The notes under the pieces are model-generated. The model saw only the letters and a list, made by a program, of their open reading frames with translations. It had not been told where the DNA came from and ran no database searches. The position numbers were made by a program, and so were the translations under genes. Shown piece by piece: positions 3 to 64,000 of a stretch of DNA of 64,000 nucleotides. This stretch comes from a virus, in the UHGV virus genome UHGV-0179803. One strand, given 5' to 3'. Position 1 is the first letter of the stretch. Every line of letters starts with the position of its first letter.

Positions 3-2306
3 CACTTAACAGATAGTTTTGCAGTAGAAGGAAAATGCAATCGTGTTTCCCACTACCCATTAACAGATGACGGTATTCCACAACACGGTGGTTTTAAAGG
101 GGTAAACATCTCTTTCAGTGAAGGGAGAGCTAAAATACCCTCTGGCTCACCTACCTGGGGTGAGTATCTTGATATTGCAGTTATGGCTTACGATGGTGCT
201 TTAGGCCGTAATTCTATGAATTCTGATGTGTATGCAGGTACAGATGATGCCCCAAACTGGTATGCGTCTGGTACGAAGTATCCGGTTGATTGGTACATAG
301 CTTGGGATGGTAACCGTTACTGGGACAATGGTACTATCGCCGATACAGGACATGCTGCTTCTGAGTACGGCACTGTTCAGTTAGCCAGCACTTCGGTTAA
401 CGGCACACATAAATTAAACTATGCAGTACGTTTACCTGTTGCGCAGGGAGGTAAAGAGATTGAACGTTATGATCCGGTGATCACTTCTCCATGTAACGTG
501 ACAGCACCTGACCAGCCAAAGCCTGTTGACTCATTGGCGATGTGGTGTGATGCTTGCTATGCACTTTATTCAATCACTTATGAAAGCAAGTATTTTGAGG
601 CCTATAAGAAGGCCCACAGCGAGCTATTAGCGTACTGCAACCCAAATGCCTATGATATGATTTATAGACGCACCACGGCGATGAGAGCGCCTTTTACCGA
701 CGGTAATGTGACAATCACTGGCAACAGACCTACACTTACCCGCGATGCTGAAGGTTATATCAATGTTGGCATGGGTGCACGTAGACCGTGTGAAGTTATC
801 CAGCAAGGTCTGACTTACAAGGTTGACAGAGATTCTTCAACTGTGATTGAGTTCGGTGGTGAGAATGTTTTGTTCCAGCCGTATTTCACTATTGACGACG
901 GTTATGGTAAAAACATAGAGTACCGTGTCGGTGTCCCGTTTGGTGGGGCAGGTATGCAGGCTAATACTTTCGAGATCCGCGACTTTGTAAGGGTATCCCC
1001 AGAGTTTGGCGACCCCTACCTGCTGCCAAAAGAAGAGAGATTGACAGCCAGCGGTGGTGCTGTTCTGGGTATGGGCTACTCCAGCACTTTATTGGGCCAT
1101 AGTGATAACTACGCTTCACTGAACCTGTCAAGCGGTCAGGTTGTTTTTGATTTTGATGGTGTGAAAGCGCTACGTTCCATTACTTATCAATGCACAGCAG
1201 ATATTGTCAGGATTAATTTCCTTGATAAAGATGGCTGGTTATGGTATACTGATCTACATGGCACAGGTGCAAACTGGGTCACTGAAAATTTATCAATTGG
1301 TGATTTTCTGCTTGAATCTACGCAACCTAATCACTCCGCTGACGAAGTGAAACCCTTCTTTGCCAACCTGAAAGAAGTAACTCAAATTACTCTCAAACTG
1401 GCAACGACTAAGATTGGTGATGGCATTTTCAATCTATACTGTGTAAACAATTTACCAGAGTTCTTTAACTTTGTTGGTGACGTTTACATCGTAAGATTCT
1501 CAATGCATCTTTCATCCCGTGTGGCAGCAACTGCTAAACTCGGCGATTGCTATGTCACAAATTACAAATTTGACAGCTTGAACTATGCACCAGGGGCATG
1601 GCCTACAGGTAAGGTTGCCAATCCAGACAGATACCTGCTGGAAGAAAGACCTGCCTATCCGGTAGCTGGTGAACAGTACCCTGCTGTATTCTGTATGGGT
1701 GAAGAACCTACAGACCTTACAGAGCTTACGAACTGTGTTAAATTCTTGTTTGATGCTCAGCAGCAATACGCAGTCGTATTTGACACAGAAGGCCCTATCT
1801 ACACAGCCTACAACTGGCAGAAAGGTAGCCTGATTGGTGGGTTCATGATGTTGGACAATTCTAAAATGCAAAGCAGAGCATTTGTTGCTGGTTGCAGAGC
1901 ACTTTATGAATTGAAGAAAAATAGAAAACCTGTGGATGAACGTTTAGAGAAATATTGCCAGAAATGGATTGCTTTCCTGAATAGATTCCAGTCAGCGAAT
2001 AGTGGCAGATTACCCACAGATTTCAATACAACAGGTGGCTATTCCAATCAGGACAGAGGTGACAAACAATGGATCACTGCTGAATGGTTAGCTGGTTGTT
2101 GTTATGCAGGTCTTGCAGGTTACACATGGGCACAGATTGACCCGGTGATTGAAGCCTGTATGAATAACTTGCAGAAACATTATTTTGTTAACAGTACCAA
2201 TATTCTCAACGGTTGTTGGGCTAACTCGGATCCTGTAGGTTTCCACTCCGGTGAAATACTGAGAGGTCTGGGCCTTTACGCTCAATATCGCAACTTGTAT
2301 ATTTAA
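3..2306 (+). CDS. Virion structural protein, 5'-truncated at window edge (probable tail or baseplate component)
   Basis: Reading frame of the 183..2306 ORF stays open with no stop back to position 3, so the gene starts upstream of the window. Sits at the head of the structural operon. No recognisable catalytic motifs. Confidence 0.6.
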
Positions 2307-2341
2307 TCTGGAGGGCTTCGGCCCTCCTAACAGGAGAAACA

Positions 2342-5300
2342 ATGGCAGATGTGAAACTTGTCAGGATTGAGTCCTTGCCTGTAACCACAGAAGTCAACAA
2401 AGAAGAAGACTTTCTGATCGTTCAGCAACCAGACCTCACCCGCAGAACTTCAGTGAAAGATCTGATGGCAGGTGATCCGACTCTCTCCCACGTTGTTAAC
2501 TTCCATGACGGTGGCACCTTGAATGGTCCGATGGACTTCTGCTACTACGAGGAAGAAGATTTATACTTACGCTGGACAGGGGGATTCCCGCATACTGTAC
2601 CTTCATTATCAAGCCCATACGAAGATGGTGACATAACCGATGGTGCATGGGCAGTTTACACTGACCCGTCTTTACGTGACGAGTTAGGTTCCACAATCGG
2701 TGCTTCCCTGGTGTTGACTGAAGATGGTAGAACCATCCAGGATACTATGGATGAAGCTATTGATGCTGCTTTTGAAGCTGTACGTGTGCTGAATGGCCTG
2801 AGCTTTGAAAGAGTGACTGTTGTATCGGATGCTAACTACCTCGAAGGCTATGCAGGCCACATCGTAATGGATGAAAAAGCAACGGTTCATTTCCCTGACG
2901 TTGCAAGAGGTGAAGGCACCTTGAACGGTTTTGTATCGAAAGTTGTGGAAACAGACACTTCTAACGTGTACGAAGCTATTATGCAGGGTGGCACAACTGG
3001 GGCGATCTACACCATCCGTGTTTCTGAAGAAGAACACAAAGCGGTATGCCACAGACATGCATTGAAATCTGAATTGAGTCGTTATGACCAAACCAATCCG
3101 ACTCGCACAGTAATCAAAGCTGGCGATGATGCTAACGCATCCTACTTACAACTTGATGCAACTGGTCGTTGGGGTGTATGGAATCCTTCCATAACCAACT
3201 GGCAACCGTTAGCTATGGAACAAGGTGGTACAGGGGTTCGTGATGCTGCTACGTTCCGTCGTAACTTCGCAGTATTTCACAGATCTCATACTGCACTGGA
3301 AGCTGATTTCAATATCAATAACCTGAAAGGTAATGATGCTGGTGTTTACTATCAGCCTATGTCAGCTCTTGCTACTACTGCTAACGGTTATCCTTGCCAA
3401 CAGGCAGGTGTATTGATTGTATTACAGAACAATGCTAACGGAGGAGATGGTTGCCGTCAGGAATATCATCCGTTCAATACTGAGGATACCTACTATTCTC
3501 GCTGGTACAATGCGGGTGAAAAAACATGGCAAGCGTGGGTAACCTGGGCAAGACCCGTGAACACTAACAGCTTCCGTGAGCGGATAGGGATTGGTGCAGG
3601 TAACTCCCCTAGCTTTAGTAATCTGTATTTGAGAGCTGTAACAGACGACAAAGGTGCTTCTGGTATCCTGAATGGTACTAAATATAAAGCAGATGGTACG
3701 ACAGAAGAGCACGGTTTCCGTATTTACTCTGAAGTCCGCAAGGATAATAAAACTTGGTTAACCTTCCACCTGAAAACAGGTCCAGAAGGTAATCAACTTC
3801 ACAAATACCTCGGCTTAAGCGAAGATGGTAATTTTGAAGTTCCGAACAATATTGCTTGTAATACTTTCGCAGTACGTGATCTGAATACAACCCGTAATAC
3901 TTTACAGGTTAACAGATTTGTACAGGCAGGTTCTGAAACTGCCGTCAACAACCCAACAAACACTGCTAAACTGATCATCACAGAGGGTAAACTTTGGGGT
4001 GCTTACGATATTGCCAACAGTTCTTACATCCCGCTGGCAATAGGCCAGGGTGGTACAGGCGCAAGAGATGCAAATACAGCCTGGGCCAATCTAGGTGGTA
4101 AGGCTCTGGGTAAACTTGACAGCATTGCATTGACCGATAATAAGATCACTGGTGTGCTGCCTGTGTCTAAAGGTGGTACAGGTGCTACAAACGTTAACGG
4201 CATTAAGAGCAGCTTAGGTGTTAACCGTTTAGTCAACTCAAGTGCAGAACGCACCATTGTACAGTCTACGGATGTACAAGGTGACGGCTGCTATCTGCAA
4301 GTCGATAAAGGTGGTCAATGGGGCTGCTTCAACCCAGTAGCTGGTAACTGGCAGGCTTTATCTATTGCTCAAGGCGGTACTGGGGCCAAAGACGCAGCCA
4401 CTGCATGGACCAATTTAGGTGGTCGTGCACTAGGTAAAATGGATTCTATCGGCTTAACCGATGGTAAAATTACAGGTGTACTCCCAGTAAGCAAAGGTGG
4501 TACTGGTTGCGTATCTGATACGGAAGTTAAAGCATGGTTAGAACGCATAGGTATCTCCGGCGGCGGTGAAGGTGGTGGCAGTACAGGTACAGGCGGTTCT
4601 GCTGTAAACACGACACCTTTCGTAATTCAGAAACCTGATGGTGCGGAAGATGGTAAATATTACCCTGTCATTATTAATACATCTGAGGTAAACGCTTCAA
4701 TTGGTACAGACCTCCTTGTTAGTACCAGATCCTCGGTAGGCACTGATCCTATGAACTGTTCTACCTTGAGATGCTGGTATCGTACTGGCGGTTGGACAGA
4801 TAGAGGTGATTCTGCCTATGGTATGATCTCCTTCTACCAGAGTGAAGTGTCCATTTTAGGTTTGCTTGTTCCTACTCGTGGTCAGACAAACTATGCCGCT
4901 ATTTATGTGCATGAAAAAGCGTTCCCTATCTACGTTTATGCAAGTGCTGCGGTGACAGATGTTTGTGCCTATGCTGAAGACTTTGTAGCCAGTACTCCTA
5001 CAGATGGTCGAGATGGGGTTGTGTATAAAGCGGGTATTACAGATATCCACGAAGCAATTTTGGGTGATAATATAACCAACACTCGTCCACTTTTTGACTT
5101 TACTGGTGGTGTAAGCGGGTTCTACTGCAACCAATGGATGTACCGTGGCACCAAAGACAAATGGTTCTTGCAGAACAAAACAGAGATGGGTGAAACCGAA
5201 CTCTGGTATAATGGTCTGAAATACATCTGCCCAGGTAGCCAGACAGCCCGTAAAGCTCTGGAATCTAACGCAGGTTTCATGACGAAATCTGAGGGTACGG

Positions 5301-7671: not shown

Positions 7672-9162
7672 ATGGCTAAATATGGTTTAACAGATGCTGG
7701 GTTTATATTGCCCACGCTCAACGACTTGATCGTTGAAACTAAGCAGAGCTTGATCAGGGCGTTTGGGGATGATTTCAACGTCCAGAGTAACTCGGTTGCT
7801 GACAAGCTCACCACAATTTTTAACGAACGTGAATACCAGTTAATCCTCATGATGGCTGCTGTATACGCCTCCCAGACACTGTATGGGGCAGAAGGCATCT
7901 ACCTTGATGAATTACTGGGCAGACAAGGTGTTTATCGTAGAGGGCGTACCAAGGCTTCTGGTCAGTGCCAGTTGACGATTAACAATACTGTCCCCTACAA
8001 CATGATTTACGACACAGAAACTTACAGCATTGATAGTGGTAACTTCAAACTTGCAAGTAATGTACAGGTAGCAGGCAACATAATTGCTCATAAGATAACA
8101 GCACCGGATCTCAGAATTGGTAAATACACATTCCAGATGACCAACCAGGTTGATGGCACTATCTTTACCAAAACCATGATTCTTACTGATAAGGCACTGG
8201 ATTCAACAGACCTTGTTAGTTTCTACGGCGAAATCAAGCAATTTATTGTTGACAACTCCACTCTTTTGAACGAAGATCTGATTCAGGTTGACATGACCAC
8301 AGGTACATTGTGGATCGGCTACGATGCTACCCTTGAGCGTGTGGGTCTGAACAGTAAAGTTGACTTTCGTGTATCTCCGATTGTGGGCGAACGCGCTGTA
8401 GTGATGGAAGTGATTGCTGCTGAAGCAGGTGCTCTGTCGCGTGAAGCAAATACGGTGACTACAATCTCCCCAACACCGAGTGGTTTCATCTCCCTCACTA
8501 ACAGAGAGATGTTTAACGAAGGTACTAATGTGGAGACTGATGCAGAGTATCGTCTAAGAGCTACAGGAACAAACGCTGTAACCTCTAAAGCTACTCGTCC
8601 GGCGATCCTGAGTGCAGTTCAAAATGTGGCAGGTGTAAGTAGGGTAAGGGTATTTGCCAACAATACAGACAAGACCAACAGCCTTGGCATCCCGCCCTAT
8701 AAATTCCAGGTGGTTGTATTTGGTGGTGCCACTGCTGACATTTGCCAGGCTCTGTATGATACGATTGCCTGTACGAACAGAACCTACGGCAACCTGTTCT
8801 ACGATATCAACACCTCAGATGGTCAGGTGGAGAGGATTTACTACTCCAAAGCAAGCACCTATCGTCTGGACATCAGGGTAACATATTCAGGGGCTGCACT
8901 TTCTGCTACTGAAAAAGAATCAATTATAAATGCCATGATGTCAGTTGTTAACGGTCTTGATATTGCAGACACTCTCTACAACATCCAGCTTGTAGGTGCT
9001 GCTTCTGCCGCTGTCAGTATTGGTCGTTTTAACAAACTGAACATTCATGTGAAACCGATTGGTGCTTCAGATGAGGCTTATACAGCTAATGACATTACAG
9101 CCGCTATGTCAGAGGTGTTTGACCTTGATGAAAACAACATCACATTCCAGCAAATCATTTAA
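7672..9162 (+). CDS. Baseplate J-like protein (P2 gpJ / T4 gp6 family)
   Basis: ATG 7672 preceded by GAGAGG. The ORF-track start at 7609 lies inside the promoter, so it was rejected. N-terminus MAKYGLTDAGFILPTLNDLIVE and internal DAEYRLRATG resemble P2 gpJ (..DYRLRI..). Confidence 0.6.
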   Translation: MAKYGLTDAGFILPTLNDLIVETKQSLIRAFGDDFNVQSNSVADKLTTIFNEREYQLILMMAAVYASQTLYGAEGIYLDELLGRQGVYRRGRTKASGQCQLTINNTVPYNMIYDTETYSIDSGNFKLASNVQVAGNIIAHKITAPDLRIGKYTFQMTNQVDGTIFTKTMILTDKALDSTDLVSFYGEIKQFIVDNSTLLNEDLIQVDMTTGTLWIGYDATLERVGLNSKVDFRVSPIVGERAVVMEVIAAEAGALSREANTVTTISPTPSGFISLTNREMFNEGTNVETDAEYRLRATGTNAVTSKATRPAILSAVQNVAGVSRVRVFANNTDKTNSLGIPPYKFQVVVFGGATADICQALYDTIACTNRTYGNLFYDINTSDGQVERIYYSKASTYRLDIRVTYSGAALSATEKESIINAMMSVVNGLDIADTLYNIQLVGAASAAVSIGRFNKLNIHVKPIGASDEAYTANDITAAMSEVFDLDENNITFQQII

Positions 9163-9861: not shown

Positions 9862-11939
9862 TGGCAACCGCTGTATTCAAAGCCTACAGGGATTACACCA
9901 CACTACAAGCAGAATTTATGTACAACACACTGGCAGATACAGCTGTGCCAGGGCGTGACTACACTCACGTCGAAGGTAAGGCGATCATTCCGGTGGATTC
10001 TGCCTCTATAGACATTCCTGTTGATATTGTGGATAAAAAACCTAACAGACTGCCTCGTAGCTTCTATATGCAGTTCCATACCCCCTCACAAGGGACGATG
10101 ATTGGGACCAAACAAGCAAAATGCACGATTACCTCCCAAGAAGATTTGAGCAGACTTGAATGGGGAACACAAGAAGAACGGATGTTCCACCCACGTTATT
10201 GGGTAACAAATTGCCAGCCGACTGAAAGTACGTCAATCAAGTCAGACAACTCCACTGTGATTGTCACGATGACTGCACGTACGATGGGGGGTATGTCTGG
10301 AGCAATCTGGGAAACAGTTGACACATACGACCACTTTGGTGTAGGATACGATGATCATTATGAAATGCGTAACACCAAACTGTGGTTCAGGGTCAAATTC
10401 ACCAATGCTCTTGACTTTACAACCCCAGGTCAGGCCACAATTACTGTCACACTTGTTGACGGTTCAATAATTTACGTCCGTATGTCAGACTATGCTTCTA
10501 ACATCTCGGATGATAAAACTACGGCAGATATTCATCTAAACTTTGAGGATTGTCTGGGTGTTGACCAGAATAACTATTTGATGGCAGTTGACCCCCGTCA
10601 GGTTCGTAAGATCCTGATCCCGTTAATGCCTAAGGACTATGTGGCTAACAGTACAGACGTTCGCACGACCAATGTTGACTGTGAACTTCGCATTGACATG
10701 TTGGAGCCGGACACTGGTTGGAAATATATGCAGCTTAATGATTTGACTGTTGAAGGTCACGATTTAAGAGCTTGCACTGCATATGATGATATGTGGAATG
10801 TTTCTCCGGCGCGTGTTCTTTATAACCTTCAGAAACTTGGCTACCGTGGTAGAATCAACCACTATTGCGGAATGAGCCATTATTATAATTACACATGGAG
10901 CAACGCAACCCATAAATGGGAGATCGATAAATCAGGGACTCTGAACAAAGCTGCCAAAGCGTGGCATGAGGATTTTGCTTATAATCTGACTCGCTACGGA
11001 TTCACAGATGCAATGTTCTCTATCAGCATGGAGCTTTACAGCGATGCCTGTCCTCTGGAATGGACCCAACGTGAATGGGACGATAGCTACGCTAAGACAG
11101 GGTATACACCTTGCAGCTACCTGTTATCACCTTGTATCGAAGAAGGTATGACATTCTTATTGAACGTCTTTAAAAACTTCGCTCAGATTTTAAAAACTCA
11201 AAGCCTGCCTGTTATTATGCAGATTGGCGAACCGTGGTGGTGGTACAATACAGACTCCCGCAGACCTTGTATCTATGACTACACCACAAAAGAGATGTTC
11301 TATGATGAAACAGGGGAGTATGCACTTGACATAGGCACTATCGACAACCCATTAACTGGTGGTGTTTATGACAGATACATCGCATTCTGTCGCGACAAAT
11401 TTGGTCAGAGAATTGCAACACTCGCTACTGGCATCAAGGCAGCATTCCCTGGTGCTCAAGTTACAGTTCTTGTCTTCTACCCCACCATTGTTGGTACACT
11501 GATGGAAGAACTTAACCTGCCAGACCAGTACAAGAAAGAGTCAGGAGTACTTGACTTCTTCTGTTCAGAATGCTATGATTGGGTTATGAATGGGGAAATA
11601 GAACATTCATTTGAAGCTATTGAGCACCCTCGCAAAACCTTAGGTTGGAACAGGAACGAAATCCATTACCTCGCAGGGTTTGTACCTGGTAAAGATTTAG
11701 CTCCAGTGTATGGCTATGACCCAGAGAAGAACTATCAGGAATTTTTGTGGAGAGTGATCTGCGGTAACATCTGTACTACTGAGTATCATTACCCAGAGGT
11801 ACAGCAGTACGTATGGGCTTATCCGCAACTTATGAATGATAGTATCACATTCAGTGCGAAAGAGTCAACTGTTGTTCACATGGGGCAGACAGCCCTTAAA
11901 AGCTACACAGAAGATGTGACACCACCAGACCTTTCATAA
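9861..11939 (+). CDS. Structural protein (692 aa), probable baseplate or fibre-proximal component
   Basis: Start overlaps the upstream stop (TAATG), indicating translational coupling within the structural operon. No diagnostic motifs. Confidence 0.55.
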   Translation: MATAVFKAYRDYTTLQAEFMYNTLADTAVPGRDYTHVEGKAIIPVDSASIDIPVDIVDKKPNRLPRSFYMQFHTPSQGTMIGTKQAKCTITSQEDLSRLEWGTQEERMFHPRYWVTNCQPTESTSIKSDNSTVIVTMTARTMGGMSGAIWETVDTYDHFGVGYDDHYEMRNTKLWFRVKFTNALDFTTPGQATITVTLVDGSIIYVRMSDYASNISDDKTTADIHLNFEDCLGVDQNNYLMAVDPRQVRKILIPLMPKDYVANSTDVRTTNVDCELRIDMLEPDTGWKYMQLNDLTVEGHDLRACTAYDDMWNVSPARVLYNLQKLGYRGRINHYCGMSHYYNYTWSNATHKWEIDKSGTLNKAAKAWHEDFAYNLTRYGFTDAMFSISMELYSDACPLEWTQREWDDSYAKTGYTPCSYLLSPCIEEGMTFLLNVFKNFAQILKTQSLPVIMQIGEPWWWYNTDSRRPCIYDYTTKEMFYDETGEYALDIGTIDNPLTGGVYDRYIAFCRDKFGQRIATLATGIKAAFPGAQVTVLVFYPTIVGTLMEELNLPDQYKKESGVLDFFCSECYDWVMNGEIEHSFEAIEHPRKTLGWNRNEIHYLAGFVPGKDLAPVYGYDPEKNYQEFLWRVICGNICTTEYHYPEVQQYVWAYPQLMNDSITFSAKESTVVHMGQTALKSYTEDVTPPDLS

Positions 11940-26079: not shown

Positions 26080-26155
26080 TGGCGGCCCCTACTGGACTTG
26101 AACCAGCAACCAAGCGATTATGAGTCACCCGCTCTACCTGTTGAGCTAAAGGGCC
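26080..26155 (-). tRNA. tRNA with anticodon CAU (Met elongator/initiator, or Ile2 if lysidine-modified)
   Basis: Hand-folded cloverleaf: acceptor GGCCCUU/AGGGGCC, D-stem GCUC/GAGC, anticodon loop CUCAUAA, T-arm GGUUCAAGUCC, encoded CCA end. Confidence 0.7.
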
Positions 26156-26156
26156 G

Positions 26157-26232
26157 TGGTGCTGATGGAGGGACTCGAACCCACAACCTTTTGATTACAA
26201 ATCAATTGCACTACCGTTTGTGCTACATCAGC
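26157..26232 (-). tRNA. tRNA-Thr (anticodon UGU), tentative
   Basis: Acceptor GCUGAUG/CAUCAGC, discriminator A, encoded CCA, anticodon loop UUUGUAA, T-loop UUCGAGU. One mismatch each in the anticodon and T stems, so identity needs confirmation. Confidence 0.55.
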
Positions 26233-26248
26233 AAACTGCTTATGATAG

Positions 26249-26323
26249 TGGTATTCGGAGCGGGAGTCGAACCCGCATCTACAGCTTAGGAGGCCGCTAT
26301 TCTATCCGTTGAACTATCCGAAC
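26249..26323 (-). tRNA. tRNA-Arg (anticodon CCU, reads AGG)
   Basis: Acceptor GUUCGGA/UCCGAAU, anticodon loop CUCCUAA, perfect T-arm GCGGG-UUCGACU-CCCGC, encoded CCA. Confidence 0.65.
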
Positions 26324-42459: not shown

Positions 42460-42929
42460 TTTACGAAAGTGACTATATCTGGAAGATTGGCCCTGCTGCA
42501 CAAGATCTGATTGAAGTGCCACGGGAAACGCTACAAAAAGCTGCTTTTAAGTTCCGTGATCTTGCAGTGATTGGTAACAGGATCCTGAAATATCTTAAAA
42601 ACAAACGTTATGTTGAAGAGAAGTTCTTCGGATTGATCAAAAAAGAAACTACAGTATGGGAACACTACTTGAAAGAGTCTCAGAGCTTCTATGCTGGGCT
42701 GGGCGTAGCTCAGATGGTGATGCATGACGGTTACATCAACCCAACTGAAATGCGTTGCCTACGCTACGCTATAAGCGATTACCCTGGGTTCCTGAAGTAT
42801 CATTTAACTGGCACAGCCTCTGAAAAGATTTATCTGACAGAGGAACATTTCGAACAACTGAATAAAATTTTAAACATAGACTTGACATTAGTCTCAACAG
42901 AGTATACAATTGGGATTCGTGTCGAGTAA
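42456..42929 (+). CDS. Hypothetical protein (157 aa)
   Basis: ORF in operon. Confidence 0.5.
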   Translation: MIYESDYIWKIGPAAQDLIEVPRETLQKAAFKFRDLAVIGNRILKYLKNKRYVEEKFFGLIKKETTVWEHYLKESQSFYAGLGVAQMVMHDGYINPTEMRCLRYAISDYPGFLKYHLTGTASEKIYLTEEHFEQLNKILNIDLTLVSTEYTIGIRVE

Positions 42930-42934
42930 TAACA

Positions 42935-42965
42935 GCCCTGCCCGAAAGGGCGGGGTTTTTGTGTT
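42935..42965 (+). terminator. Rho-independent terminator (CCCTGCCC-GAAA-GGGCGGGG + T-tract)
   Basis: GNRA-loop hairpin followed by TTTTTGTGTTT. Confidence 0.65.
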
Positions 42966-42981
42966 TGGAGGGCTAAATAGT

Positions 42982-43716
42982 ATGAAGCAAGGTGTAGTGT
43001 GGGCTTTATTCAATGGCTCCGATATTGCTGTCAAACCCTGGGCTGATGCAGGGTATTTGTGCTTCTGCTTCAATGCAGAAGGGGCAGATCACGGGAGCTA
43101 TGCAGAGGTAGTAGAAGAACATCCCAACATTAAGTACATAGATTACTGGATTGACCCGTGGTTCCCACAAGAAACCTTGGGGATGTATCCTGCACCAGAT
43201 TTCATCCTGTCGTTTCCACCATGTACCCACTTAGCGGTATCTGGAGCAGCACATTTCAAGAAAAAATTACAAAAAGATCCGTTGATTCAGGTCAATGCTG
43301 TAAAAGATGCACGTATTGCAGAAACATTGGGTAACATGTATAATTGTCCGTGGCATGTGGAGAACCCTGTTGGGGTTATGTCTAATATGTGGCGTAAACC
43401 AGACTACAAGTTCCATCCGTCTGAGTATGGTGGCTATCTGCCGGAAGATGACCAGAACCCGTGGTTCCCTGACCTGATTAAGCCCAGAGATGCTTATCCG
43501 AAGCTAACCTGTGGATGGTTTGGGAATGGTTTTGTTGTCCCTGAGAAACGACCTGTGCCGCAGATTTGTGATGTAAATGGGTATTCTTTCCAACATACCA
43601 AACTGGGAGGAAAATCTCCTCGTACCAAAATGATCAGAAGCCTGACACCTCGTGGTTGGGCATTAGCCGTGTTTGAAGCCAACGAACCCGTTGTAAGGAG
43701 CAAACTCAATGGTTGA
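42982..43716 (+). CDS. Possible DNA (cytosine-5) methyltransferase-like protein; assignment tentative
   Basis: Ordered motif-like segments: LFNGSD (cf. motif I FxGxG), SFPPCTHLAVSG (cf. motif IV PC), WHVENPVG (cf. motif VI ENV). Short for a C5-MTase (244 aa). Confidence 0.3.
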   Translation: MKQGVVWALFNGSDIAVKPWADAGYLCFCFNAEGADHGSYAEVVEEHPNIKYIDYWIDPWFPQETLGMYPAPDFILSFPPCTHLAVSGAAHFKKKLQKDPLIQVNAVKDARIAETLGNMYNCPWHVENPVGVMSNMWRKPDYKFHPSEYGGYLPEDDQNPWFPDLIKPRDAYPKLTCGWFGNGFVVPEKRPVPQICDVNGYSFQHTKLGGKSPRTKMIRSLTPRGWALAVFEANEPVVRSKLNG

Positions 43717-44380
43717 CTGGAGCAAATATTTCACCTACAGTGACGGTAAACTGTTCTGGGCGTATACCGCAAAAGCCGGAAGAGGCAGGGTTATACATCA
43801 CGCAGGCGAGGAGGCCACAGGTACAGACACAGATGGCTATAGGGTGATAAGTGTGTCAGGTGTTGGACGTGTTAGTAGGCATAGAATAATTTGGGAGATG
43901 CATTACGGGGAGATACCTGAAGGCCTTGTTGTGCGGCACAAGAACGACATAGCAGGCGATGATAGGATAGAGAACTTAGTCCTAGGAACACAGGGAGATA
44001 ATGTACGAGACATGATCTACAGTGACAAATTGAACATTAACAATACCTCAGGGTGTCGAGGTGTATGCTACCATAGGGGTGTAAAAAGATGGATTGCATC
44101 TGCTGGAGACATATATTTAGGATGTTTTAAGACAAAAGAGGATGCAATTACATGCAGAAAGTTATGGGAGGAGGGAAAATTCGTCCCGCAAGAATTAGAT
44201 GTTAGAAATACCAGCGGTGTAACAGGGGTGTTCTATGTGCCAAGCTCTGGAAGGTGGAGAGTTAGAGTACAAAGTGGCAAAAAGAGAAAGAGCTATGGTA
44301 GTTACAACACTTTAGAAGAAGCAAGAGCTGTAAGGGACAGAGTGATGAAAGAGATTGAGGAGTCTAAAGATGGGGAATAA
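43709..44380 (+). CDS. Freestanding HNH homing endonuclease with AP2 DNA-binding repeats
   Basis: HNH_3-like core ..RHRIIWEMHYGEIPEGLVVRHKNDIAGDDRIENLVLGTQGDN.. plus AP2-like repeats ..SGCRGVCYHRGVKRWIASAGDIYLGCFKTKEDA.. and ..SGVTGVFYVPSSGRWRVRV..YGSYNTLEEA.. Confidence 0.7.
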   Translation: MVDWSKYFTYSDGKLFWAYTAKAGRGRVIHHAGEEATGTDTDGYRVISVSGVGRVSRHRIIWEMHYGEIPEGLVVRHKNDIAGDDRIENLVLGTQGDNVRDMIYSDKLNINNTSGCRGVCYHRGVKRWIASAGDIYLGCFKTKEDAITCRKLWEEGKFVPQELDVRNTSGVTGVFYVPSSGRWRVRVQSGKKRKSYGSYNTLEEARAVRDRVMKEIEESKDGE

Positions 44381-50813: not shown

Positions 50814-51187
50814 AAGTTAAAGGCACAGAACACATAGAACGCGCTGTGGAGGTTGAACTGGATGCCCGTGAAGTGGGCGAACTCATCGACAACACAGCAG
50901 AAGAAGTGCTCCTGCATTCGATTCAGTGCCGTGCAATGCAACGTTTCTATGAACGGGTTGCAGGTTTTGAAGGCTCTTTTTGTGTGCGGCAGCGGCAGGG
51001 AGATAATGGTATACTTGTGTACCAACTGTGGAAAATTGATGCTGACTGGGACTACCACAATGATGTTGGCATCGATGAAAAAATAAAAGACTTGACAACA
51101 GAGGAGGTTGTGGAGTATATTTACCTCCGTGGTTGGGTAGAGAACGCAATATTCCAGTTAAGAATTCCAGTTGGAGAAGCCAAATGA
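50810..51187 (+). CDS. Hypothetical protein (125 aa)
   Basis: ATG overlaps the upstream stop (ATGA); RBS GAGGAGATAGAGG. Confidence 0.45.
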   Translation: MKVKGTEHIERAVEVELDAREVGELIDNTAEEVLLHSIQCRAMQRFYERVAGFEGSFCVRQRQGDNGILVYQLWKIDADWDYHNDVGIDEKIKDLTTEEVVEYIYLRGWVENAIFQLRIPVGEAK

Positions 51188-60811: not shown

Positions 60812-61134
60812 ATGAAGTATGGGAAATCTGTGTAGACGTAGCAGGAATCACGCTTATAGGTGCTCTGGTTATTGCTCTGGCGCTGGTAGGATACAAGATG
60901 GCACTTCTGCCTTTCCTGGAAGCATTCAGCCTGTGTCATTGCTGGCGTAGAGCATATGGACCACAACCTGTAAAAGACTGGTTCACTTTGTACCGTATTG
61001 CACTATCTTACACGTTTGATCATTCACGCTTAAACTGCATTGAAAGCTATCATGCTGATGGTTGGTGGTGGGTAGGATTATTCAGATGGGAGGTGACAGA
61101 GGTAACTCCGAAACGAATGCTTAAGAAAAATTGA
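60808..61134 (+). CDS. Small membrane protein (108 aa)
   Basis: Hydrophobic N-terminus VAGITLIGALVIALALVGY. Confidence 0.45.
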   Translation: MNEVWEICVDVAGITLIGALVIALALVGYKMALLPFLEAFSLCHCWRRAYGPQPVKDWFTLYRIALSYTFDHSRLNCIESYHADGWWWVGLFRWEVTEVTPKRMLKKN

Positions 61135-61715
61135 TTTTAGAATTATAAAAGTTTTAGATGACAAGGGGAAATCTGTAATAGATTTTCCCTTATTTATCAG
61201 ATATTTGCAGATATTTGAAAATCATTAGAAACTTAGGTAATTAGGAGCGTACGAAAATGGATTTTTTAAAAGCATAAGCAATCATTTAGCAAATTAGCCA
61301 AATAGATTTTAGCCTATTGCTATTGTGTATGCATGTATTTGCATATGCCTTGCACATATCCCCACACACCTCTTCCCACATTCCCACACAGTTCTCGGTT
61401 GACCCGCCAATCTCCCCTCCACAACTCTCCCAGTAATTTCCTTAAGTACTCGATCTGTTTTTCAAAATCGAAATCGGATTCTGAAAATCTCGACAGCTTT
61501 TCTCCTCGGTTCTCGATAGGTTTTTTATTTTCGATTTTGGATTCTGGATCTCGGTCTGGTTCTGGCTAGGCCTGCGCCTGAGGAACGAAAGCACTTTTTT
61601 ATTTTTGAAAGTGGATTTTGAATTTCTATATAGAAAAAATTTACCCCCTACCATTTTTGGTAGATAGTCACGGTACGTAATTAGCCTGCTAACTAAATTT
61701 TAGATAGTTTCATGA

Positions 61716-61908
61716 GTGATTATCACCGTTACTATAAATTGCCGTAACTATAAATCACCGTGCGTTACTATTTTAATTTCACCATGCAACTATAAATCAC
61801 GGGCCGTTATTATTTATATAGAAAACTATTACTAACCGTGCGTTATTACCTCAATTTGCTTAGGTTACTATTAATCACCGTAAGTAACTATTTTTTAAAT
61901 GATAATCA
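61716..61908. repeat. AT-rich iteron block: ACTATAAAT and TCACCGT(G/A)(C/A)GTTACTATT repeats, flanked by TGATTATCA ... TGATAATCA
   Basis: ACTATAAAT at 61731, 61747, 61789. TCACCGT at 61723, 61755, 61875. AACCGTGCGTTA at 61835. Mutually reverse-complementary 9-mers at 61716-61724 and 61900-61908. Confidence 0.6.
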
Positions 61909-61926
61909 TTCTCAAAATATATTGCG

Positions 61927-62215
61927 TGCATCCCCGGTGATTGTCTCCCGGCCCCTGGTGCCCCGGCTTGATTATATAATAACAGATCCGGCCCCCATGT
62001 CAACAGCTTTTTTAGAAAAATATTAGTTACAACATCCTGGCGCCACCTGGCAGGGCCATCATGACCATGATCCGGTCCGGCGCTTGCGCCCTGGTCCATC
62101 CTCCGCACATTAGTTACAGCATTCCAACGACCGATCCCCGATAGTCTGCAACCTGGCGGGGCCGCCTGGTCCACTGGACCGCCTCCCCTGGTCCGGTGGG
62201 GAGTCCGGCTTGCAA
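61927..62215. repeat. GC-rich island with clustered CCTGG-containing hairpin-like repeats
   Basis: CCTGG occurs about 7 times in one orientation within about 290 bp. Repeated ATTAGTTACA(A/G)CAT at about 62022 and 62110. Near-palindromes such as GGTCCACTGGACC. GC content far above the window average. Confidence 0.55.
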
Positions 62216-62351
62216 TTCAAAATGTGATCTGTGTCAACCTTTCACCATGTAGCTATTGATCAGGTTACGGCCTAGTGTATTCTATAGGTGAAGGGAAACA
62301 AAGGGGAAACGGAAAGCAAAACACCAGGCCGCAAGGCAGGAGGAAAATAAA

Positions 62352-62528
62352 ATGAAAGGCATGGTTAACAACAACAACGTAAAAGAGAGGGAAATTATTG
62401 TTAATGGTCGTGAGATTGACAATAAACGCCGGAAAGCTATGCGTGATGCCCTGGTCAACTGGTTGGATTATGAAAAAATGATGGTAATGGCAGCGGGTGC
62501 CGCAGCTGGTGAATTTAACCACAGATAA
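62352..62528 (+). CDS. Hypothetical small protein (58 aa)
   Basis: Hand-translated: MKGMVNNNNVKEREIIVNGREIDNKRRKAMRDALVNWLDYEKMMVMAAGAAAGEFNHR. RBS AGGAGG 7 nt upstream. Confidence 0.4.
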   Translation: MKGMVNNNNVKEREIIVNGREIDNKRRKAMRDALVNWLDYEKMMVMAAGAAAGEFNHR

Positions 62529-62747
62529 CCACAGGGGGGCAAAGGTGTTAGCTTATAATCTTCCAGGCCGTCGCCGTACGGTTGCCGACCAGGTAACGGC
62601 AAAGGCAGACGTAACAATCAACAACGGGCAGGGCCTTTACAAGTTTAAACGGGGGAACAGCTATACGATCCAGTTTCTTAACCGTTGTGCTTTAACACCT
62701 GGTCAGATCAACCATTGGTTTAAAGCTAAAAAATTTTAAAAAATTAG

Positions 62748-62776
62748 TTGACACCAGAAAGAAATAAAGTATTATA
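62748..62776 (+). promoter_or_regulatory. Sigma70-like promoter (TTGACA, 16-17 bp spacer, TATTAT/ATTATA)
   Basis: Exact -35, AT-rich -10; RBS AAGGAG and ATG at 62825 downstream. Confidence 0.45.
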
Positions 62777-62824
62777 GATAGTGAAAGCAGTACACAAGGT
62801 TAACAAAATATAAGGAGTAACATC

Positions 62825-63226
62825 ATGAGCGCTTTTAACACTGATTTCGATTTCTCTGGTCTGGAAGAAGTTCGCGATCTTCGTAACTGCCGCCGCGAAA
62901 ACGGTTTTTATAAATCTCTGGACCTGGTGGCACTGGACCACAAAATGGACCTGGAAGAAGTAGCAACGATTCGTTTCTACCAGTCACCGCGCGGTAACAC
63001 TGTTTACTGTGTAGTATGGGTACATGAAGCAGGGCACGAATTTTATGCCACTGCTGGCGGGAAAGCTGGTGGCTATGGTTACGATAAAGAGGAGGCCGCA
63101 TTACGGGAAGCTATCGAGGCGATGGGTGTAAAAGCTGGCGATTATGCTCACCCTGAAAAATTTTTAATCCAGCTTGCTCGCTACTTCGGATATGAAAAAG
63201 CTAAAGTGATTGAAGCACACGCATAA
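62825..63226 (+). CDS. Hypothetical protein (133 aa)
   Basis: RBS AAGGAG; ORF after the promoter. Confidence 0.5.
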   Translation: MSAFNTDFDFSGLEEVRDLRNCRRENGFYKSLDLVALDHKMDLEEVATIRFYQSPRGNTVYCVVWVHEAGHEFYATAGGKAGGYGYDKEEAALREAIEAMGVKAGDYAHPEKFLIQLARYFGYEKAKVIEAHA

Positions 63227-63303
63227 GCTGCCTTTTAGATGGCCCCCTGGTGGGGCCATTGATAAAGGTAACTTGGGGCAACAATAACCGAGAGAAAGAA
63301 AAT

Positions 63304-63738
63304 ATGAAACGTTTACCACGCTGGATCCGCTTTATTAATAAACTTGCCGCAGATGAAAAAATCCAGGCTATGCATAAAGATAACCGCGAACGCCGTGCTG
63401 CCTTACGAGATTATCGCCGCATGTTGGCAAAGTTAGCCAATAAAAATGGCGTTCTTAAACCGTTCCGCAAAGTGATCCACCTGGTCGCTATGGGAGCGCC
63501 TAAGGTGGCAAACGTTCCAAACGTCCATAAGATTGATGACCGCGACGTTGTAAGAGATATTGATAAAGATTTTTCTCCGAAGGCCATCAATCAGCGGATC
63601 AACAGCTGCAAAAATAAGAAAGATCTTGATAATTTGTTAGATAGCCTCGACGCTTTAGGGTGTGATTATGATTTCTTAGATGACAAGATTAATAAAAAAT
63701 ACCGCGAATTGGCTGGTTATCGCGTCAACCGGATTTAA
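63304..63738 (+). CDS. Hypothetical basic protein (144 aa)
   Basis: ATG 63304 after GAGAGAAAG. Lys/Arg-rich. Confidence 0.45.
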   Translation: MKRLPRWIRFINKLAADEKIQAMHKDNRERRAALRDYRRMLAKLANKNGVLKPFRKVIHLVAMGAPKVANVPNVHKIDDRDVVRDIDKDFSPKAINQRINSCKNKKDLDNLLDSLDALGCDYDFLDDKINKKYRELAGYRVNRI

Positions 63739-64000
63739 CATATCAGAATAGTTGGCCCTGGTGGATCCGATCCGTGCACGGTCCAGGGTATGCCCGAAAA
63801 CCTCCCCCATTACGCCGCTACGCCTGTTTTGAAGGTGTGGCGGTGTAGTTGCACCTCTTTGCAAAACACCTCGCCATAATACTTATTTGATGCCTTATTT
63901 TCGATACGCTCAAATAATGACCAATCAATCGCCCCCACCATGATTTTTTTCTTGCAATCCCCCAATGTATGAATACAATAACAATTGAAGGCAGTATTAA

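Follow-up and report, generated by a model that had tools for sequence, protein, structure and literature searches.

Location and coding content of the region

The region analysed here covers positions 61135–62340 of a 64,000-nucleotide (nt) stretch of the virus genome UHGV-0179803 (the whole stretch is hereafter called the window); it was located between two co-oriented early-gene operons and is most likely a conserved non-coding region that exerts control in cis. By megablast and blastn, the window was placed among the Vequintavirinae (rV5-like Escherichia coli myophages) as a divergent lineage: 3–9% of 24 kb was alignable to Vequintavirinae at ≥80% identity, the annotations there including DNA primase/helicase and family-A DNA polymerase, and the 133-amino-acid protein immediately right of the region displayed at most 51% identity to any phage in the collection. 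The closer relatives (about 90% DNA identity) were metagenome contigs only, namely L009 and L013 from IMG/VR together with L026 and L044 from other collections (L044 from human gut). Among the further phages compared, FBKp34 (locus L018; accession number MW394390.1) belonged to Stephanstirmvirinae, and BME3 was represented by the ends of record PP239276.1 (loci L019 and L020).

An earlier note made from the letters of this DNA had found no convincing open reading frame (ORF) in the region, and this holds: ORFs of at least 100 amino acids were absent over 1690 nt including the region, longer than anywhere else in the window, and no ORF within the region was conserved. Substitutions relative to the relatives lacked 3-periodicity and indels were 1, 2, and 7 nt in length, so the short ORFs present were not regarded as genes; the small ORFs annotated inside the corresponding gap in some records (197–199 in the rV5 GenBank record) were not conserved. 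The lowest-GC (26–30%) and highest-GC (58–63%) 200–300-nt segments of the 64 kb were both inside the region (GC, guanine plus cytosine). A scan of the region for transfer RNA (tRNA) and transfer-messenger RNA genes found none. A host or plasmid origin of the sequence was rejected: there was no E. coli match, and the sole "plasmid" match was a 137.6-kb non-mobilizable record, the size of a Vequintavirus genome; since its match fell on the query segment that the phages also matched, this record is probably a misfiled phage genome.

Every repeat, palindrome, and GC-rich CCTGG island listed in the earlier note was found where it had been placed. The features of the region were as follows (window positions, strand in brackets):

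61166–61198 (+): intrinsic terminator of the upstream early operon, a 10-bp hairpin at 61166–61190 (GGGGAAATCT/AGATTTTCCC) followed by the T-run TTATTTAT
61198–61270 (+): two copies of CAGATATTTG (61198–61217, detected by TRF), then a conserved block TTAGAAA...GAAAATGGATTTTTT of conserved alignment columns
61271–61436 (+): variable C-rich spacer with CCCACA-type repeats and two copies of TTCCCACA at 61373–61388, the least conserved part
61446–61650 (+): three direct repeats of 63–74 nt (family D2), R1 at 61446–61508, R2 at 61509–61582, and R3 at 61583–61650
61649–61725 (+): rest of the core, with palindrome TACCATTTTTGGTA (61649–61662), block GTCACGGTACGTAATTAGCCTGCTAACTAAATTT (61667–61701), GATAGTTTCATGAGTGATTAT (61703–61723), and TGATTATCA (61717–61725)
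61722–61895 (+): iteron block of about eight same-orientation GTWACTATWWWT (GTWACTAT) units 16–24 nt apart, or alternatively four units of 36–42 nt
61900–61914 (unstranded): operator-like 15-bp palindrome TGATAATCATTCTCA, which includes TGATAATCA and matches the Fur-box 7-1-7 consensus TGATAATnATTATCA at 14 of 15 positions
61932–61949 (−): leader motif GGGAGACAATCACCGGGG, about +20 to +37 of the predicted antisense transcript, present in a single copy in the window
61948–61966 (unstranded): short CCGG...CCGG hairpin around CCCCTGGTGCC, weak, with a 4-bp stem and a loop that varies
61976–62003 (−): sigma-70 promoter with −35 TTGACA (62003–61998), 16-nt spacer, and TG-extended −10 TATTAT (61981–61976), predicted to start at about 61968
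62019–62163 (+): duplicated 87–106-nt unit ATTAGTTACARCAT...ACCTGGCRGGGCC (families D15 and D16), containing four of seven CCTGG
62164–62216 (+): GC-rich hairpins GGTCCACTGGACC (62168–62180) and CTCCCC...GGGGAG (62183–62203), then GTCCGGCTTGCAAT
62217–62351 (+): upstream region and ribosome-binding site (AGGAGG) of the next early gene, ORF 62352–62528 (ATG at 62352; phrog_21957)

Conservation and the rV5 counterpart

A gap of about 1 kb was found at the same place in the Vequintavirus genomes SYGMH1, DrSchubert, Murica, and rV5, and in the rV5 genome paper it appears on the map as a "non-coding" box without an assigned function (Kropinski et al. 2013, PMC3606486). The DNA of the Vequintavirus gap displayed 70–75% identity to window positions 61437–61984, while the neighbouring 133-amino-acid protein displayed only about 48%. 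The rV5 gap and the region shared the position between co-oriented early genes, the terminator, three 65-nt repeats, the palindrome, the leader motif, and the minus-strand promoter, but they differed in two respects: (i) rV5 had two promoter modules, while the window had one and (ii) the 184-nt iteron block and the extra GC-rich duplications of the window were missing from rV5.

Identities between the window and three close relatives of its own lineage were as follows:

Flanking gene: 93.0%
Left spacer (61135–61436): 81%
Core (61437–61725): 96.9%
Iterons: 91.3%
Palindrome, leader, and promoter (61899–62003): 96.2%

The core and the promoter module were thus more tightly constrained than the adjacent gene. 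Each of R1 to R3 within the core contained a CTCGAT/CGAAAG box, a T-tract, and GGATTYTG, with GGATTCTG boxes at 61476 and 61540 inside this three-copy family, and all three repeats were conserved in Vequintavirus as far as rV5. The remaining core part (61649–61725) was invariant in the window-lineage relatives and conserved in rV5-type phages, and a 21-nt match (95%) to it fell inside the terminal-repeat region of phage KPP-1. The spacer at 61271–61436 was poorly alignable to rV5-type phages, with GC skew down to −0.41.

The leftmost palindrome had been proposed in the earlier note as part of an origin of replication; it proved instead to be a conserved intrinsic terminator, with 89.6% of cells paired across seven homologues and four base pairs changed on both sides (compensatory pairs), compared to zero to two in slid controls.

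Minus-strand promoter and leader motif

The predicted minus-strand promoter matched the consensus at 11 of 12 positions plus the TG. Its hexamers were identical in the window, L009, L013, L026, and L044, with the spacer diverging, and counterpart minus-strand promoters were found in SYGMH1 and FBKp34; no ORF lay downstream of it in the window. The rV5-type phages harbored two promoter modules, the second being TTGACA-17-(TG)CACAAT with spacer GGCCCCGCCAGGTGG. FBKp34 displayed the same order on its minus strand, namely TTGATC-16-(TG)TATTAT, then GAGACAAACACCG, then three palindromes, and it carried a second cassette copy in sense orientation upstream of a gene (leader copies at L018 3195 and 12840). 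Within the "non-coding" gap of FBKp34, upstream of its antisense cassette, an unannotated 100-amino-acid ORF (L018 3433–3732, minus strand) was observed. It was preceded by a good ribosome-binding site and included a stretch resembling a helix-turn-helix, and neither the window nor the other loci contained a homologue of it.

In Vequintavirinae, FBKp34, and unrelated phage contigs alike, a −10 element preceded exact copies of the leader motif by 18–31 nt, this reach being that of exact-pattern scans only. The form GGGAGACAAYCACCGGGG (core GGAGACAAWCACCG) was promoter-proximal in the unrelated contigs L010, L011, L029, L037, L041–L043, L051, L052, and L057; one contig of 46.8 kb (L010/L011) had at least five copies, L057 had six within 13 kb, and L041, a contig of 215 kb, had six within 12 kb. 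In low-GC contigs the leader was always 18–31 nt after the −10 element (often TGnTATAAT) and usually just past the terminator of the preceding gene, and the usual order in unrelated contigs was terminator, −10-only promoter, conserved leader, and CCTG...ATTCWG, the second conserved block after the leader being CACCG(N2-4)CCTG(N4-9)ATTCWG. Leader matches in high-GC contigs were apparently inside coding sequence and fitted chance. The motif was not in Rfam. A conserved small peptide after the leader motif was considered and rejected on inspection, the reading frames differing between the window and the rV5 modules. The promoter-plus-leader cassette is thereby a generic, unexplained phage element.

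Two known systems were compared with the cassette. RNAfold placed GACAA of the leader motif in a pentaloop, and the same GACAA pentaloop occurs in P22 boxB (PDB 1A4T; bioRxiv 10.1101/2025.07.03.663028), but no boxA or N-like protein was identified here, the pairing register of the 5′ arm varied between copies, and there was no covariation. The leader-motif cassette was, in unrelated contigs, a multi-copy intergenic unit. In this it resembled, as a lead only, the PeSL-type mobile regulatory cassettes of T4-type phages, which consist of a terminator stem-loop plus an early promoter; it differed in its sequence, in that its conserved part was the transcribed leader, and in that the single window copy faced no gene.

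Fur-box-like palindrome

The Fur box has the 7-1-7 motif TGATAATnATTATCA and a 19-bp form GATAATGATAATCATTATC. The palindrome at 61900–61914 belonged to a family with consensus TGAKAATnATTMTCA, which is the 7-1-7 motif with one common change, and one or two copies were found at the same place in all relatives. Beyond the 14/15 match of the window, module B of rV5 matched the 19-mer at 17 of 19 positions and BME3 matched the 15-mer fully (15/15), inside a mapped 342-bp terminal repeat; the window palindrome matched the 19-mer at 15 of 19 positions and thus gave no match at ≤3 mismatches. The palindrome was also repeated in non-coding regions of FBKp34, KPP-1, and BME3, and further copies were found in FBKp34 (several in or beside early-region intergenic gaps), Av-05, and L013.

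Two differences from a Fur box were noted: the commonest phage form was asymmetric (TGATAAT n ATTCTCA), and the window palindrome lay at about +55 to +70 from the predicted antisense start, not over the −10/−35 elements. The only promoter candidate that it overlapped was a weak plus-strand one, TTTAAA-18-TATATT (9/12). Judged from the motif, host Fur is a possible binder, and a phage protein would be equally so. A literature search on Fur boxes in lytic phages returned nothing relevant. Matches at 13–15 of 15 positions were additionally seen at window position 51185, at L018 3100, 3129, 3158, 9005, 12906, and 12951, at L017 4216–4961, and at the BME3 junction, and the L013 gaps 7996–9109 and 10475–10824 each contained a palindrome of the same family.

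Iteron block

With at most one mismatch, GTWACTATWWWT occurred nine times in 64 kb, and eight of these were in 61100–62360 (seven in the block and one on the minus strand at 62019); WACTAT occurred eight times in 201 nt, compared to 0.6 in shuffles. The block was bracketed by TGATTATCA (61717–61725) and TGATAATCA (61900–61908). Iterons were present in L009, L026, and L044, while L013 was rearranged, with two direct copies plus reverse-complement copies seen by eye; the block length was constant (184–186 nt) in the window, L009, and L044, with no variation in copy number.

An anti-ToxIN non-coding RNA, the type III antitoxin mimic pseudo-ToxI, is encoded by phiTE, another rV5-like phage (PMC3475682). 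The pseudo-ToxI locus of this related phage resembled the iteron block in being non-coding and built of tandem repeats of about 36–42 nt, but it lay in another genomic neighbourhood, and the window units were only 71–84% alike with fixed copy number. The iterons were rejected as a ToxI or pseudo-ToxI homologue: only the 8-mer GGTGATTT was common, no Rfam match was obtained, and the phiTE locus was elsewhere.

GC-rich island

Most of the GC-rich island consists of a minus-strand promoter cassette and of duplicated segments. Since GGCCCCGCCAGGTGG is the spacer of the second minus-strand promoter in rV5-type phages, ACCTGGCGGGGCC of the island was recognised as the same promoter-spacer sequence on the other strand. 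One copy of the duplicated unit was missing in L013, and the hairpins at 62168–62180 and 62183–62203 were not conserved in L009 or L013. The CCGG hairpin showed, by eye, one compensatory change (CCAG...CTGG) in module B of L013, and RNAalifold did not pick this hairpin.

The relatives also displayed an insertion here. In L013, a gene for a 229-amino-acid HNH_2 homing endonuclease (1390–2079) was inserted after the equivalent of window position 62216, flanked by duplicated TGGACCGCCGCGCCCTGG; the aligned start of the same HNH ORF was found in L009 from about 3060 before that locus ends, and L026 had about 750 extra nt there (2268–3022). The window lacked the HNH gene but retained the target-like sequence, and its GC island showed no HNH remnant at the protein level.

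Seven same-strand CCTGG (61954, 62036, 62046, 62090, 62152, 62165, and 62187) were found within 234 nt, the densest cluster among the 77 copies of the window (about 1.2 per kb); several of them belonged to internal duplications (families D6, D8, and D15), so that they were not independent events. Counting both forms, eight CCWGG (seven CCTGG and one CCAGG) were located in 61954–62324 (about 370 nt), compared to about 2 per kb in the window, and CCCTGGTS occurred 13 times in the window compared to 3.75 expected, with six plus-strand copies in 61953–63763. The enrichment pointed out in the earlier note is therefore real; the methylation control suggested with it found no support beyond site density and the presence of a DNA methyltransferase (phrog_757 at 42910–43716), which Pfam did not recognise and whose homologue in Vequintavirus (BASEL phages) was annotated as Dcm-like. 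The shared orientation of the CCTGG copies has no meaning for Dcm because CCWGG is palindromic. Beside the methyltransferase gene, and directly upstream of the primase-helicase gene, an HNH_3 plus AP2 homing endonuclease was observed at 43709–44380. GC-rich hairpins with CCCTGGTG were also seen just past the stop codons of the 133- and 162-amino-acid genes (63241–63258 and 63756–63797); having no T-run, these were not classical terminators.

The earlier note had further suggested a structured non-coding RNA in the island, and none of the folding tests favoured one: (i) folding of 61900–62260 gave z = +1.67 (minus strand) and +1.22 (plus strand), no better than shuffles; (ii) RNAalifold on seven modules gave −8.2 kcal/mol with no compensatory pairs; and (iii) Rfam, searched with the gathering and E-value thresholds over the window and the cassette-bearing loci, yielded only tRNAs. 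A structured RNA is thus unlikely, and the leader may be unstructured or protein-bound. Two further readings of motifs were rejected on inspection: CCTGGC as a sigma-54 promoter (spacing misfit) and TGGTC as T7-primase sites (in window repeats but not conserved in relatives).

A candidate transcription-activated origin

The primary origin of T7 is composed of tandem promoters plus an AT-rich segment, and the T4 origins oriF and oriG are each composed of a promoter plus an unwinding element. The region may tentatively be read as a transcription-activated origin of this T7/T4 type, with a rough probability of 0.35, and this is the best single guess for its role. Under such a scheme, host RNA polymerase would start at about 61968 on the minus strand and make a leader that would be G-rich because the template is C-rich on the plus strand (negative GC skew); transcription would cross the operator-like palindrome and enter the 300 bp that are richest in AT within the 64 kb, comprising the iterons and the three-repeat core; the transcript or the opened duplex would let the T7-type primase-helicase and family-A polymerase of the phage initiate replication; and the Fur-box-like palindrome and the repeat boxes would be protein-binding sites gating initiation. 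To the right of the promoter, the GC island would not be a separate device but material duplicated from the promoter cassette plus a homing-endonuclease landing site.

Several observations are consistent with this origin, among them the non-coding character of the region, the conservation of its core and promoter module beyond that of the flanking gene, and an iteron motif nearly confined to this spot in a block of fixed length. The conserved promoter was directly upstream of an AT-rich segment, the lowest-GC 300-nt segment of the 64 kb starting at 61623, directly downstream of it. The primase/helicase and family-A polymerase annotated in regions homologous to the window supply a replication context, and for rV5, relatives of its primase/helicase were noted in podoviruses (PMC3606486). 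Compared to the T7 and T4 origins, the region shared an AT-rich, easily opened segment behind a promoter, in a phage with a T7-type primase-helicase, a family-A polymerase, and no recognisable initiator protein, but it had a host sigma-70 promoter directed against the surrounding genes, additional repeat arrays, and an operator-like palindrome.

The iteron block invited a second comparison, with the iteron origins lambda ori and plasmid oriV/oriR. Such origins have at least three same-orientation repeats of about 17–22 bp beside AT-rich DNA, and the window had about eight, 16–24 bp apart, beside AT-rich DNA. The array differed in having no adjoining initiator gene (the neighbouring small proteins tested had no Pfam domain and no named function and belonged to PHROGs of unknown function), in having no DnaA boxes, and in being absent from sister genera rather than kept across related phages.

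The following points weigh against the origin: (i) the region had no DnaA boxes, and clustering of GATC was not enriched in it; (ii) the iteron block was absent from rV5-type phages and therefore cannot be a universal core; (iii) promoter-like matches in the region (9) were no commoner than in shuffles (7.4), so that it is conservation that makes the case for the promoter; (iv) the cassette was found in FBKp34 and unrelated contigs in sense orientation upstream of ordinary genes, and being generic rather than region-specific, it weakens the argument that the promoter marks an origin; and (v) the skew analysis of rV5 found no origin and no inflection here (PMC3606486). A literature search on the rV5 origin or on Vequintavirus transcriptomes found nothing relevant. 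As regards the earlier note, the proposal of a functional cis-acting non-coding region with repeat arrays stands, with the origin role at the tentative strength given above, while the roles given to the first palindrome, packaging, methylation, and a structured RNA do not.

Alternative explanations

The first alternative is a non-coding RNA locus, in which one or two antisense RNAs, small or long, would be transcribed from the minus-strand cassette or cassettes, and their conserved 5′ leader GGGAGACAAUCACCGGGG would be the functional part, for example, regulatory or anti-defence. The conserved promoter with no ORF behind it and the exact leader motif, always 18–31 nt after a −10 element, in unrelated phages agree with such a locus, as do L011 (1782, plus strand) and L041 (1920, minus strand), where the cassette was followed by a terminator-like hairpin giving an RNA of about 80–90 nt, and the anti-ToxIN RNA of phiTE is a precedent (PMC3475682). 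However, no terminator lay behind the leader in the window, the fold energy was like that of shuffles with no compensatory pair and no Rfam family, the phiTE locus was in another neighbourhood with the iterons unlike ToxI beyond the 8-mer, and the best-conserved part of the region, the AT-rich core 250–500 nt further on, would go unexplained. An RNA locus is accordingly considered unlikely.

A plain transcriptional boundary, judged just as doubtful, would consist of the terminator, an opposing promoter blocking read-through, operators for an early/middle switch, and a promoter restarting transcription for the next genes, with no replication or packaging role. It is favoured by the covariation of the terminator; by the recurrence of the palindrome near early-region intergenic gaps of FBKp34 and at other positions of Av-05 and L013; by FBKp34, where the order promoter, leader, palindromes, second promoter, and gene was also found in sense orientation; and by the many sigma-70 promoters and terminators of the rV5 early region (PMC3606486). 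About 150 nt would suffice for such a boundary, however, not 1.2 kb, and it leaves unaccounted for the three 65-nt repeats kept as far as rV5, the iteron array, and conservation above that of the flanking gene.

A bolder reading, and a less probable one, is that the cassette (extended −10 promoter, GGAGACAAWCACCG at about +20, and CCTG...ATTCWG) would be an undescribed cis-element spread horizontally among unrelated phages. Its carriers would be Vequintavirinae, Stephanstirmvirinae, low-GC contigs of about 45 kb (five to six copies each), and the 215-kb contig; in rV5-like phages, by the same rather improbable account, it would have been turned against gene flow and would direct non-coding transcription into the AT-rich core, gated by the Fur-box-like operator. 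If true, replication of the phage, or the timing of its early genes, would be coupled to a signal from the host, iron status for instance.

A packaging or genome-end region, that is, a pac site or a short direct terminal repeat as in related subfamilies, had also been suggested in the earlier note, and it is decidedly unlikely. Short terminal repeats have been reported in relatives (PMC9862379, PMC12210895), and Stephanstirmvirinae are reported to have them generally (PMC12695924). In KPP-1 (Mydovirus), a 514-bp terminal repeat was mapped inside a 1.8-kb non-coding region (PMC9862379), which shared with the window the 21-nt block (95%), the palindrome family, and an inverted GTAACTAT pair. In BME3 (Justusliebigvirus), the 342-bp terminal repeat was located in a non-coding region between co-oriented small genes, with a same-orientation WACTAT array upstream of it (14 compared to 3.4 expected) and four distinct palindrome sites upstream of and inside it. 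The BME3 and KPP-1 regions thus resembled the one studied here as large gene-free stretches among small early genes carrying the TGAKAATnATTMTCA family, GTAACTAT/WACTAT motifs, and short identity blocks, but only these short motifs were common, with no alignable homology; the KPP-1 region lay between convergent genes, and the flanks of the window and KPP-1 showed no synteny at the protein level.

Within the lineage itself, a packaging role found no support, the hint being the KPP-1 and BME3 repeats with the same motif families. Vequintavirus was called circularly permuted by PhageTerm (PMC8407724), and phiTE was found experimentally to be permuted (PMC3475682); no terminase was noted in the annotations of the window or its homologous regions, no dedicated terminase search having been run, and the terminase of phiTE was in another neighbourhood; and positions in metagenome contigs gave no consistent end. 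In FBKp34, some 10 kb separated the rV5-like module (L018 2664–3925) from the position that by synteny corresponds to the BME3 repeat region, so that the two kinds of non-coding region may be distinct. Across its ends, the BME3 record PP239276.1 apparently has two copies of a block of about 790 bp and three of the 342-bp repeat, one copy including N's; this is probably an assembly or finishing artefact.

It is very improbable that the region is a functionless remnant of evolution, made up of early genes in decay, duplicated cassettes, and a landing pad for a homing endonuclease: the HNH gene inserted in relatives with flanking target duplication, the segmental duplications and deletions of the GC island, and a left spacer only 81% conserved would fit, but the core and promoter module were more conserved than the adjacent gene and were kept between genera whose neighbouring proteins are about 48% identical, and protein remnants were not found. 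A control sensitive to methylation of the CCWGG cluster, whether by Dcm or by the phage methyltransferase and analogous to Dam control of P1 pac, would be the least credible: against the CCWGG and CCCTGGTS enrichment, the methyltransferase with its Dcm-like homologue, and the recurrence of ACCTGG motifs in the GC part of rV5-type and FBKp34 regions stand the origin of many sites as internal-duplication copies, the lack of a Pfam match or an assigned target specificity for the phrog_757 enzyme, the presence of CCCTGGTS in post-stop hairpins (63245 and 63756) and once inside a gene, which indicates a local hairpin style, and the motif being simply promoter spacer in rV5-type phages.

Significance and further observations

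The rV5-like phages are among the broadest-host-range coliphages and are therapy candidates, and the region is the gap left unexplained by the rV5 paper. This gap was already known, and what was done here is to reduce it to testable parts: the core of 290 nt, the iterons, a single operator, and the antisense promoter. Identifying an origin or packaging part would aid phage engineering, such as minimal replicons, transducing particles, and safe deletions. The most novel leads are the generic leader cassette and the Fur-box-like operators; the occurrence of the former in unrelated phages and of the latter in several subfamilies would be of wider interest if they are functional.

To the right of the region, the promoter of ORF 62352–62528 was not established by a consensus scan. 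A second gene-poor stretch was observed after the 162-amino-acid gene (63739–64000), where L013 had a gap of about 750 nt followed by plus-strand genes. Elsewhere in the window, three tRNA genes, Met-CAT, Thr-TGT, and Arg-CCT, were found on the minus strand at 26080–26323.

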